From: Escherichia phage Qbeta
Strand: one strand, 5' to 3'
Length of the DNA stretch: 4,218 bases
Sequence record: FJ483842.1
Shown: positions 2,349 to 4,218 of the stretch, one piece after another
Position numbering within the stretch: the stretch's first letter is position 1
Layout: each line of letters opens with the position of its first letter
Program-made: the position numbers and the translations under genes
The notes under the pieces: generated by a model
Databases searched by the model: none
Told to the model about the DNA's origin: nothing
What the model saw: the letters and a program-made list of their open reading frames with translations, nothing else

Positions 2349-2368
2349 ATGCATGTCTAAGACAGCAT
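2349..2368 (+). promoter_or_regulatory. Replicase translational operator hairpin (coat-protein binding site) enclosing the replicase start codon
   Basis: Seen in sequence: ATGCATGTCTAAGACAGCAT folds as an 8-bp stem (2349-2352 and 2354-2357 pairing with 2361-2368), with a bulged A at 2353 and a 3-nt loop UAA (2358..2360). The replicase ATG (2353..2355) lies inside the stem. Established knowledge: this is the architecture of the Qbeta operator through which coat protein dimers repress replicase translation. Confidence 0.7.
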
Positions 2369-4122
2369 CTTCGCATAACTCTCTTAGCGCACAATTGCGC
2401 CGAGCTGCGAACACAAGAATTGAGGTTGAAGGTAACCTCGCACTTTCCATTGCCAACGACTTAATGTTGGCATATGGTCAATCGCCATTTAGTTCTGAGT
2501 CTGAGTGTATTTCACTCAGCCCGAAATTCGACGGAACCCCGGATAACTTTAGGATAAATTATCTTAAAGCCGAGATCATGTCGAAGTATGACGATTTCAG
2601 CCTAGGTATTGATACCGAAGCTGCTGCATGGAAGAAGTTTCTAGCAGCAGAGGCTGAATGTGCTTTAACGAACGCTCGTCTCTATAGACCTAACTACAGT
2701 GAGGATTTCAATTTCTCACTGGGTGAGTCGTGTCTTCACATGGCTCGCCGAAAAATAGTTAAGTTGATAGGAGATGCTCCGTCCGTTGAGGGTATGTTGC
2801 GTCATTGCCGATTTTCTGGCGGTGCCACAACAACGAATAACCGTTCATATGGTCATCCGTCCTTCAAGTTTGCGCTTCCACAAGCGTGTACGCCTCGGGC
2901 TTTGAAATATGTTTTGGCTCTTAGAGCTTCAACGCATTTCGATATCAGAGTTTCTGATATTAGCCCTTTTAATAAAGCAGTTACTGTACCAAAGAACAGT
3001 AAAACCGATCGCTGTATTGCTATCGAACCCGGTTGGAATATGTTTTTCCAATTAGGTATCGGTGGCATTTTACGTGATCGGTTGCGTTGTTGGGGTATCG
3101 ACCTGAATGATCAGACGATAAACCAGCACCGCGCTCACGAGGGCTCCGTTACTAATGATTTAGCAACGGTTGATCTCTCAGCGGCAAGCGATTCTATATC
3201 TCTTGCTCTCTGTGAGCTCTTATTACCTCCAGGTTGGTTTGAGGTCCTTACGGATCTCAGATCACCTAAGGGGCAATTGCCTGACGGTAGTGTTATTACC
3301 TATGAGAAAATTTCTTCCATGGGTAATGGTTACACATTCGAGCTCGAGTCGCTTATTTTTGCTTCTCTCGCCCGTTCCGTTTGTGAGATACTGGACTTAG
3401 ACTCATCTGAGGTCACTGTTTACGGAGATGACATTATTTTGCCATCCCGTGCAGTCCCTGCTCTTCAGGAAGTCTTTAAGTATGTTGGTTTTACTACCAA
3501 TACTAAAAAGACTTTCTCTGAGGGGCCGTTCAGAGAGTCGTGCGGTAAGCACTACTATTCTGGCGTAGATGTTACTCCCTTTTACATACGTCGCCGCATA
3601 GTGAGTCCTGCCGATTTAATATTGGTTTTGAATAACCTATATCGGTGGGCCACGATTGACGGCGTATGGGATCCTAGAGCCCATTCTGTATATCTCAAGT
3701 ATCGTAAGCTGCTGCCTAAACAGCTGCAGCGTAATACTATACCTGATGGTTACGGTGATGGTGCTCTCGTCGGATCGGTCTTGATCAATCCTTTCGCGAA
3801 AAACCGCGGGTGGATCCGGTATGTTCCGGTGATCATAGACCATACAAGGGACCGAGAACGCACTGAGTCAGGATCGTATCTCTACGATCTTTTCTCGCGC
3901 TGCTTCTCGGAAAGTAACGATGGGTTGCCTCTAAGGGGTCCGTCGAGTTGCGATCCTGTATATCCACTTGCCATAGATCAGCTTATATGTAAGAGTAATC
4001 CTACAAAAATAAGCAGATCTACTGGTAAGTTTGATGTACAGTATATCGCGTGCAGTAGCCGTGTTCTGGCACCCTACGGGGTCTTCCAGGGCACGAAGGT
4101 TGCGTCTCTACACGAGGCGTAA
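2353..4122 (+). CDS. rep: RNA-dependent RNA polymerase, replicase beta subunit
   Basis: ORF ending at TAA 4120..4122. Starting at ATG 2353 (AGGA at 2341..2344, 8 nt spacer) gives 589 aa, the size of the Qbeta beta subunit; the in-frame ATG at 2344 would add MKC but sits on top of the SD. Catalytic motifs are intact: motif A Asp at 3172..3174 (VDLSAASD) and motif C YGDD at 3421..3432. The sequence MSKTASSHNSLSAQLRRAANTRIEVEGN... matches my recollection of Qbeta replicase, with substitutions. Confidence 0.95.
   Translation: MSKTASSHNSLSAQLRRAANTRIEVEGNLALSIANDLMLAYGQSPFSSESECISLSPKFDGTPDNFRINYLKAEIMSKYDDFSLGIDTEAAAWKKFLAAEAECALTNARLYRPNYSEDFNFSLGESCLHMARRKIVKLIGDAPSVEGMLRHCRFSGGATTTNNRSYGHPSFKFALPQACTPRALKYVLALRASTHFDIRVSDISPFNKAVTVPKNSKTDRCIAIEPGWNMFFQLGIGGILRDRLRCWGIDLNDQTINQHRAHEGSVTNDLATVDLSAASDSISLALCELLLPPGWFEVLTDLRSPKGQLPDGSVITYEKISSMGNGYTFELESLIFASLARSVCEILDLDSSEVTVYGDDIILPSRAVPALQEVFKYVGFTTNTKKTFSEGPFRESCGKHYYSGVDVTPFYIRRRIVSPADLILVLNNLYRWATIDGVWDPRAHSVYLKYRKLLPKQLQRNTIPDGYGDGALVGSVLINPFAKNRGWIRYVPVIIDHTRDRERTESGSYLYDLFSRCFSESNDGLPLRGPSSCDPVYPLAIDQLICKSNPTKISRSTGKFDVQYIACSSRVLAPYGVFQGTKVASLHEA
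2545..2870 (+). promoter_or_regulatory. Approximate M-site (internal replicase binding site) within the replicase gene
   Basis: Established knowledge only: in Qbeta the M-site lies at about nt 2545..2867. It is placed here by positional homology, since the window appears collinear with Qbeta with a +1 offset. I did not fold this region and cannot confirm the branched structure. Confidence 0.3.
2973..2980 (+). other. Candidate upstream partner of the long-range pseudoknot with the 3'-terminal hairpin loop
   Basis: Seen in sequence: TAAAGCAG (2973..2980) can pair antiparallel with CTGCTTTG (4196..4203) in the loop of the 3'-terminal hairpin, 7 Watson-Crick pairs plus one G-U. Established knowledge: Qbeta needs a pseudoknot between the 3' hairpin loop and a sequence about 1200 nt upstream, near the M-site; the distance here is about 1220 nt. 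Confidence 0.45.
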
Positions 4123-4218
4123 CCTGGGAGGGCGCTATTATAGCGCCTAGTTGTGAATCAATTATCACAACTACTCTTACGAGTGAGAGAGGGATCTGCT
4201 TTGCCCTCTCTCCTCCCA
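4123..4218 (+). promoter_or_regulatory. 3' untranslated region with three hairpins (4131..4147, 4151..4170, 4185..4212) and the 3'-terminal CUCCCA tail, the initiation site for minus-strand synthesis
   Basis: Seen in sequence: GGCGCTA/TAGCGCC stem (4131-4137 with 4141-4147, loop TTA); TTGTGA/TCACAA stem (4151-4156 with 4165-4170); GAGAGAGGG/CCCTCTCTC 9-bp stem (4185-4193 with 4204-4212, 10-nt loop ATCTGCTTTG), followed by a single-stranded CTCCCA 3' end. Established knowledge: levivirus RNAs end in ...CCCA, with replicase initiating opposite the penultimate C. Confidence 0.7.

Follow-up and report, generated by a model that had tools for sequence, protein, structure and literature searches.

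The window analysed here, a stretch of 4,218 nt, is the complete genome of an RNA phage of the Qβ group (Qubevirus durum), as judged by megablast against a phage collection. The closest match in that collection was Qβ strain VK (FJ483843; 95.7% identity over the full length), and laboratory Qβ was ~92% identical to the window. Its open reading frames match the genes annotated for maturation protein, coat and read-through protein (A1), and replicase, and these four genes are arranged in the same order as in VK. The genus, Qubevirus, was formerly named Allolevivirus. Our analysis concerns the loop of the 3'-terminal hairpin, U1, and a short segment of the replicase gene with which this loop is predicted to pair. 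The relevant features are the following.

2353–4122, plus strand: replicase beta-subunit ORF (coordinates as annotated in strain VK), which holds the internal partner
2546–2868, plus strand: approximate M-site (internal replicase/S1 binding region), transferred from Qβ nt 2545–2867 and given for context only
2941–2961, plus strand: hairpin 5' of the internal site, predicted by folding, in which relatives show two-sided changes at five pairs
2973–2980, plus strand: 5' strand of the predicted pseudoknot helix, UAAAGCAG, in the replicase ORF (codons N207-K208-A209-V210)
2981–3002, plus strand: hairpin immediately downstream of the internal site, predicted by folding (stem 2981–2987/2996–3002; 94.5% of cells paired)
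4125–4130, plus strand: 5' strand of the domain-closing helix, predicted by folding, whose partner is the last six nucleotides (4213–4218)
4185–4212, plus strand: 3'-terminal hairpin U1, predicted by folding (stem 4185–4193/4204–4212; loop 4194–4203)
4194–4195, plus strand: unpaired loop nucleotides AU, which would bridge the pseudoknot helix in the manner of loop 1 of an H-type pseudoknot
4196–4203, plus strand: 3' strand of the predicted pseudoknot helix, CUGCUUUG, within the U1 loop
4213–4218, plus strand: 3'-terminal CUCCCA, sequestered in the domain-closing helix (folding; PMC8880383)

In the predicted fold, the last 99 nt form a four-hairpin domain (-48.1 kcal/mol; z = -7.5), and its closing helix, 4125–4130/4213–4218, agrees with the cryo-EM model of Qβ, in which the last six nucleotides are paired with residues 4124–4129 (Qβ numbering; PMC8880383). 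The stem of U1 covaries among relatives, with both sides changed at two pairs, and its 10-nt loop is AUCUGCUUUG (4194–4203), where position 4194 is A or C among relatives. A reading made from the sequence only had proposed that this loop forms 8 bp, one of them G-U, with 2973–2980, and both the coordinates and the sequences proved exact: CUGCUUUG and UAAAGCAG can form eight contiguous pairs, seven of them Watson-Crick and one G-U (C4196-G2980, U4197-A2979, G4198-C2978, C4199-G2977, U4200-A2976, U4201-A2975, U4202-A2974, and G4203-U2973). The energy of this duplex is -8.9 kcal/mol, and its strands lie 1216 nt apart, close to the ~1220 nt given in the earlier reading. In the 1999 description of the Qβ pseudoknot, the helix is likewise said to comprise 8 nt, with single mismatches rescued by second-site changes.

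The internal strand is predicted to be a single-stranded linker between hairpins 2941–2961 and 2981–3002; partition-function folding of 2850–4218 yields unpaired probabilities of 0.56–0.98 for 2973–2980 and of 0.82–1.0 for the loop. From the sequence, the arrangement at the loop is that of an H-type pseudoknot: G4203 directly adjoins the closing C4204, and two nucleotides (A4194 and U4195) are left on the 5' side. Because no nucleotide separates G4203 from C4204, the pseudoknot helix can stack on the U1 stem, and it probably does so. The connecting loop of ~1.2 kb is nonetheless far from classical H-type geometry, and the location of the internal partner, in a linker between two hairpins and not in a loop, sets the contact apart from a kissing loop. 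A scan of the window with Rfam returned no curated family at the gathering score, the sole match being a chance miRNA (25.5 vs 74 bits); a 1.2-kb pseudoknot cannot be encoded by covariance models.

The earlier reading had also placed the partner just downstream of the presumed M-site, which agrees with the positions given for this region in Qβ and SP. The M-site of Qβ comprises nt 2545–2867 (PMC4176380), and the internal site lies ~105 nt downstream of the transferred end of this region; in phage SP, where the counterpart is annotated as 'replicase binding region m' at 2629–2956, the distance is 106 nt. For Qβ, a long-range pseudoknot has been described (Klovins & van Duin, J Mol Biol 1999;294:875, cited in PMC4176380 and PMC4200798) in which the U1 loop pairs with an interdomain sequence ~1200 nt upstream, and later papers describe it as essential for replication (PMC4176380, PMC3561173). 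According to the work cited there, disruption of the helix abolishes Qβ replication and restored complementarity rescues it. The window belongs to the same genus and species-level group as Qβ, and its element has the same hairpin, loop (AUCUGCUUUG), and internal segment (UAAAGCAG) as Qβ, with no difference of substance beyond the window being a different isolate.

When the genome was shuffled with its dinucleotides preserved, 52% of the shuffles contained a match to the loop of at least 8 bp with no more than one G-U pair (0.65 such matches per shuffled genome on average), and the real genome contains two such sites. In a single sequence, the complementarity of loop and site alone is not beyond chance. 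The principal alternative, favoured by shuffled matches of equal quality, is that the complementarity would be coincidental and no helix would form, with the U1 loop conserved for maturation protein A2 or the replicase, and the internal sequence AAUAAAGCAGU conserved either for the coding of N-K-A-V or for the binding of S1 or Hfq to an A/U-rich single strand beside the M-site.

The conservation of the two segments was examined in 13 Qubevirus genomes (VK, BZ1, TW18, Qβ, HL4-9, FrMerlot, M11, MX1, SP, NL95, FI, HB-P24, and BR8), all from cultured phages, whose replicase genes are 59–96% identical to that of the window. The internal sequence AAUAAAGCAGU is identical in all 13 and in the window, and the 11-nt invariant run at 2971–2981 ties for the longest in the replicase ORF. 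This run spans codons N207-K208-A209 and therefore includes three synonymous positions (2973, 2976, and 2979), each of which is invariant across the 14 genomes, an observation that coding alone leaves unexplained and that speaks against a coincidental match. Among codons with a conserved, degenerate amino acid, just 14.8% are fully invariant, and only 2 of 103 testable triplets of consecutive codons are fully invariant, N207-K208-A209 being one and a triplet at 3766 the other. These comparisons show an RNA-level constraint on the predicted partner at 2971–2981.

Outside HL4-9, the loop in cultured Qubevirus genomes reads (A/C)UCUGCUUUG, and CUGCUUUG is kept in 12 of the 13 complete genomes. 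The loop of HL4-9 (FJ483841) is CUGCUUAG, with a change at the position equivalent to 4202 that breaks the U4202-A2974 pair and leaves the internal site unchanged; the change may stem from faulty sequencing so close to the 3' terminus or may be a mismatch that the phage tolerates, and in the latter case it would sit well with the coincidental reading. By formal pair count, 99% of cells in the helix are paired across the 13 genomes, complementarity being kept in both group III and group IV, and no covariation was detected within the helix among cultured Qubevirus genomes, 7 of the 8 pairs being without any variation. This absence also agrees with coincidence, although the covariation test is uninformative within the cultured Qβ group because both segments are invariant.

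Two further features of the conserved replicase sequence may be recorded. The Lys208 codon (2974–2976) is AAA in 24 of 24 Qβ-like genomes, though AAG would retain a U-G wobble, and in an outgroup at ~40% identity the corresponding Lys is encoded by AAA or AAG; the uniform use of AAA suggests a constraint beyond simple pairing. Separately, the runs at 3667–3677 (UGGGAUCCUAG) and 3766–3775 (CUCGUCGGAU) are among the other longest invariant runs of the replicase gene. In the minimum-energy fold they are predicted to pair with each other (3670–3674/3772–3776 and 3676–3677/3766–3767), and they look like two frozen strands of one conserved helix.

Sequence variation at the internal site was found among uncultured relatives. 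A replicase protein search recovered uncultured lineages at 46–72% identity, most of them with read-through domains, and at least eight Qβ-like lineages are represented among the Logan, JGI, and ENA contigs numbered L100–L122, one of them (L114) corresponding to 'Chimba virus'. The 3' regions of L100, L101, L103, L106, L107, L111, and L114 had no blast match in the phage collection, the exception among the blasted uncultured lineages being L105, an FI-like contig. At the pseudoknot site, the uncultured lineages fall into N-K-A-V and N-K-A-T types, and position 2980 (G in the Val codon, A in the Thr codon) has changed state at least twice on a neighbour-joining replicase tree. The alleles of the site are distributed as follows.

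UAAAGCAG: Qβ, M11, SP, and L101/L122
CAAAGCAG: the FI-like L105
UAAAGCAA: L100, L102–104, L114, and L116
CAAAGCAA: L106 and L115
UAAAGCGA: L117–121
CAAAGCGA: L108–113

In L105, U2973 is replaced by C, whereby the wobble becomes a G-C pair, and the 3' end of this contig is itself missing. None of the contigs L100–L107 and L110–L121 extends past the 5' arm of U1, each lacking ~25 nt or more of the true 3' terminus, and the functionally important terminal loop is systematically missing from public-read assemblies of these phages. L122 (N-K-A-V type; 63% identity) extends further than the other contigs, with most of the loop retained, and both partners are kept as far as this ENA contig reads. At the other extremity of L117 (positions 1–29), 29 nt ending in ...CACCCA precede the genomic 5' GGGG, and the tail of this contig departs from its sister contigs after GGGCUAACGCCC; L117 looks chimeric, and the piece ending in CCCA is unlike the U1 hairpin.

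The 3' end was recovered for one lineage, P0014, the replicase of which is 49% identical to that of the window. Its 3' end was taken from two permuted JGI contigs from different samples, both of which read across the 3'-to-5' junction (L108 3500–3545 and L109 1–75). These contigs are permuted or concatemeric assemblies in which the true 3' hairpin is preserved; over L108 3500–3560 and L109 1–90, the genomic 3' end (...CCCCUCC) runs directly into the 5' end (GGGGUAGGG...). The 3' domain of P0014 has the same four-hairpin architecture, and its U1 hairpin is GGGGACAGG-UUUGCUUUG-CCUGUUCCCC. Between the loop, UUGCUUUG, and the site, CAAAGCGA, all 8 bp are preserved: relative to Qβ, one C-G pair has become U-A, a compensatory change, while U-A to U-G and G-U to G-C are one-sided (in the formal count, one pair changed on both sides and two on one side, with 99% of cells paired). 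The homologous site, 1186 nt from the 3' end, is the sole match in the P0014 genome of at least 8 bp with no more than one G-U pair. As P0014 is one lineage and hence represents one evolutionary event, its covariation is modest evidence; given A at the site, U has a chance of ~1 in 3–4 of standing opposite. Covariation had been put forward as a check on the proposed pairing, and the outcome was divided, with the cultured Qβ group uninformative (7 of 8 pairs frozen) and one compensatory change contributed by the P0014 lineage.

Other collections yielded little variation at the site. A degenerate-codon pattern scan for synonymous variants of the site gave 0 matches in metagenome_contigs, and the same scan of viral_contigs returned just SP, FI, and one Qβ fragment. 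Approximately 75 IMG/VR contigs at ~40% identity in the replicase alignment have N-K-V/I (AAUAAGGU...) at the site, and their true 3' ends are missing; for these two reasons they could not be used for covariation. In several relatives at ~40% identity (L024, L027, L028, L055, L070, and L075), the 3' UTR contains small hairpins (UGC-GAAA-GCA or CUGC-GAAA-GCAG) whose two halves, linked by a tetraloop, are similar to the loop and site of Qβ; the likeness may be fortuitous.

The comparison with other genera bears on what may be concluded from the loop itself. In MS2, GA, M, PRR1, PP7, and AP205, the U1 loop finds no complement in the codons homologous to N-K-A, and the pairing at this position is thus specific to the Qβ-like clade. 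Conservation of the loop core UGCU(U) is nevertheless widespread, with UGCUU-type loops in MS2, GA, PRR1, and AP205 in the absence of a complementary homologous replicase site; a conserved loop, taken by itself, is therefore no evidence of pairing. Moreover, the maturation protein binds U1 in the virion, and deletion of U1 or alteration of its loop abolishes infectivity (PMC8880383, in which the pseudoknot is not mentioned). The loop thus has a second reader, and these two sets of observations, both congenial to a coincidental match, mean that loop invariance has other possible causes. Coincidence nevertheless has to contend with the invariant synonymous positions, with a lineage whose site differs at three positions and whose loop restores all eight pairs, and with the published reports that the pseudoknot is essential for Qβ replication. 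On balance, we regard a fortuitous match without a helix as improbable.

The other alternative, that the true partner is the nearer AAGCAGAU (4011–4018) in a local pseudoknot spanning ~180 nt instead of 1.2 kb, is highly implausible, for although this segment is a perfect Watson-Crick complement of loop nucleotides AUCUGCUU (4194–4201), the sole 8-bp match in the genome without a G-U pair, and has a slightly better duplex energy (-9.6 vs -8.9 kcal/mol), its sequence differs among members of the Qβ clade (AAGUAGAU in TW18 and HL4-9, AAGCAGGU in Qβ), M11, MX1, and group IV possess nothing equivalent to it, and the predicted fold places it in the paired part of a stable local hairpin (unpaired probability of ~0). 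The presence of a better-looking decoy in the same genome means that conservation and accessibility are needed to choose the correct partner. A 9-bp match with three G-U pairs at 1456–1464 was also considered as a partner of the loop and was rejected, its pairing being broken in group IV.

We therefore return to the pairing of the U1 loop with 2973–2980. Its identification with the long-range pseudoknot of Qβ, as the sequence-only reading had suggested, is supported by conservation, by predicted accessibility, and by one natural compensatory change, and we hold with high confidence that the feature is the Qβ long-range 3' pseudoknot in a genome of the Qβ group (Qubevirus durum). The pseudoknot itself is already known for phage Qβ. 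The replication requirement comes from literature on Qβ proper and would extend to the present strain by analogy.

In the mechanism envisaged for the pseudoknot, the U1 loop of the plus strand (4196–4203) would pair with the linker at 2973–2980 in the replicase gene, and the replicase holoenzyme would dock, through ribosomal protein S1, at the M-site ~105 nt upstream of that linker. The loop-linker helix, probably stacked on U1, would then tether the 3' domain, which is otherwise closed, to the region of the M-site. With the 3'-terminal domain tied to the internal binding site, the 3' end would in consequence be held near the polymerase active site, where minus-strand synthesis could be initiated. 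In the literature on Qβ, two long-range interactions are invoked to account for the way in which a replicase anchored through S1 draws the 3' end into the active site (PMC4176380, PMC4200798). The other of these, which serves the same purpose in the published model, is the contact between the M-site region and the 3' domain (Klovins, Berzins & van Duin, RNA 1998;4:948); it differs from the pseudoknot in being an ordinary long-distance helix that closes a domain and involves different nucleotides. The G-U pair of the window, as well as the U-G pair of P0014, would be a C-A mismatch in the complementary strand, and such wobble pairs fit, as we infer, a role specific to the plus strand.

Given the binding of U1 by the maturation protein, a further reading of the loop can be offered tentatively: U1 may constitute a two-state switch, in which pairing with 2973–2980 would mark the genome as a replication template, and capture by A2 would exclude the pseudoknot and commit the genome to packaging. 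The invariance of both strands, including the AAA codon of K208, would then reflect two overlapping readers. We consider this switch possible, with the balance of probability on the other side.

Several related long-range contacts may be compared with the U1 pseudoknot. Putative U1-loop pseudoknots have been proposed for other ssRNA phages, among them phage M, with a UUGCU loop and AGCAA ~1215 nt upstream (PMC3561173); they are similar to that of Qβ in the UGCU core and in the distance spanned, but, given the codon comparison above, any such pairing in those phages would not be positionally homologous. In the packaged Qβ genome, kissing-loop contacts have been reported between 2844-UCGU and 1876-ACGA and between 2811-UUUUC and 2749-GAAAA (PMC8880383), the latter being modelled by cryo-EM as a branched kissing loop in which the 2749-GAAAA-2753 bulge pairs with 2811-UUUUC-2815 (PMC8880383). 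We note that another invariant run, GAAAAAUA (2750–2757), coincides with the 2749-GAAAA-2753 bulge in Qβ numbering. These virion contacts resemble the U1 pseudoknot in being long-range RNA-RNA interactions within coding sequence that show conservation at synonymous sites; they differ in joining loop to loop or loop to bulge and in being linked to packaging, whereas the pseudoknot joins a loop to a linker and is linked to replication. Beyond the RNA phages, the HCV 5BSL3.2-3'X contact and the long-range elements of tombusviruses likewise involve a 3'-terminal loop and an element in the polymerase gene that together control minus-strand synthesis. The logic is the same as in Qβ, but the viruses and sequences are unrelated and the contacts are mostly loop-loop, so that the parallel is one of analogy only.

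To the known pseudoknot, the present analysis makes modest additions: a decoy site in the same genome, the finding that cultured genomes leave the covariation test empty, and, in an uncultured relative, a single compensatory change of natural origin. In public read archives, the internal site does vary among uncultured relatives, and in the one lineage whose 3' end could be recovered, the changes in loop and site match. For Qβ, the element accounts for the ability of a replicase docked 1.4 kb away from the 3' end to start copying there.
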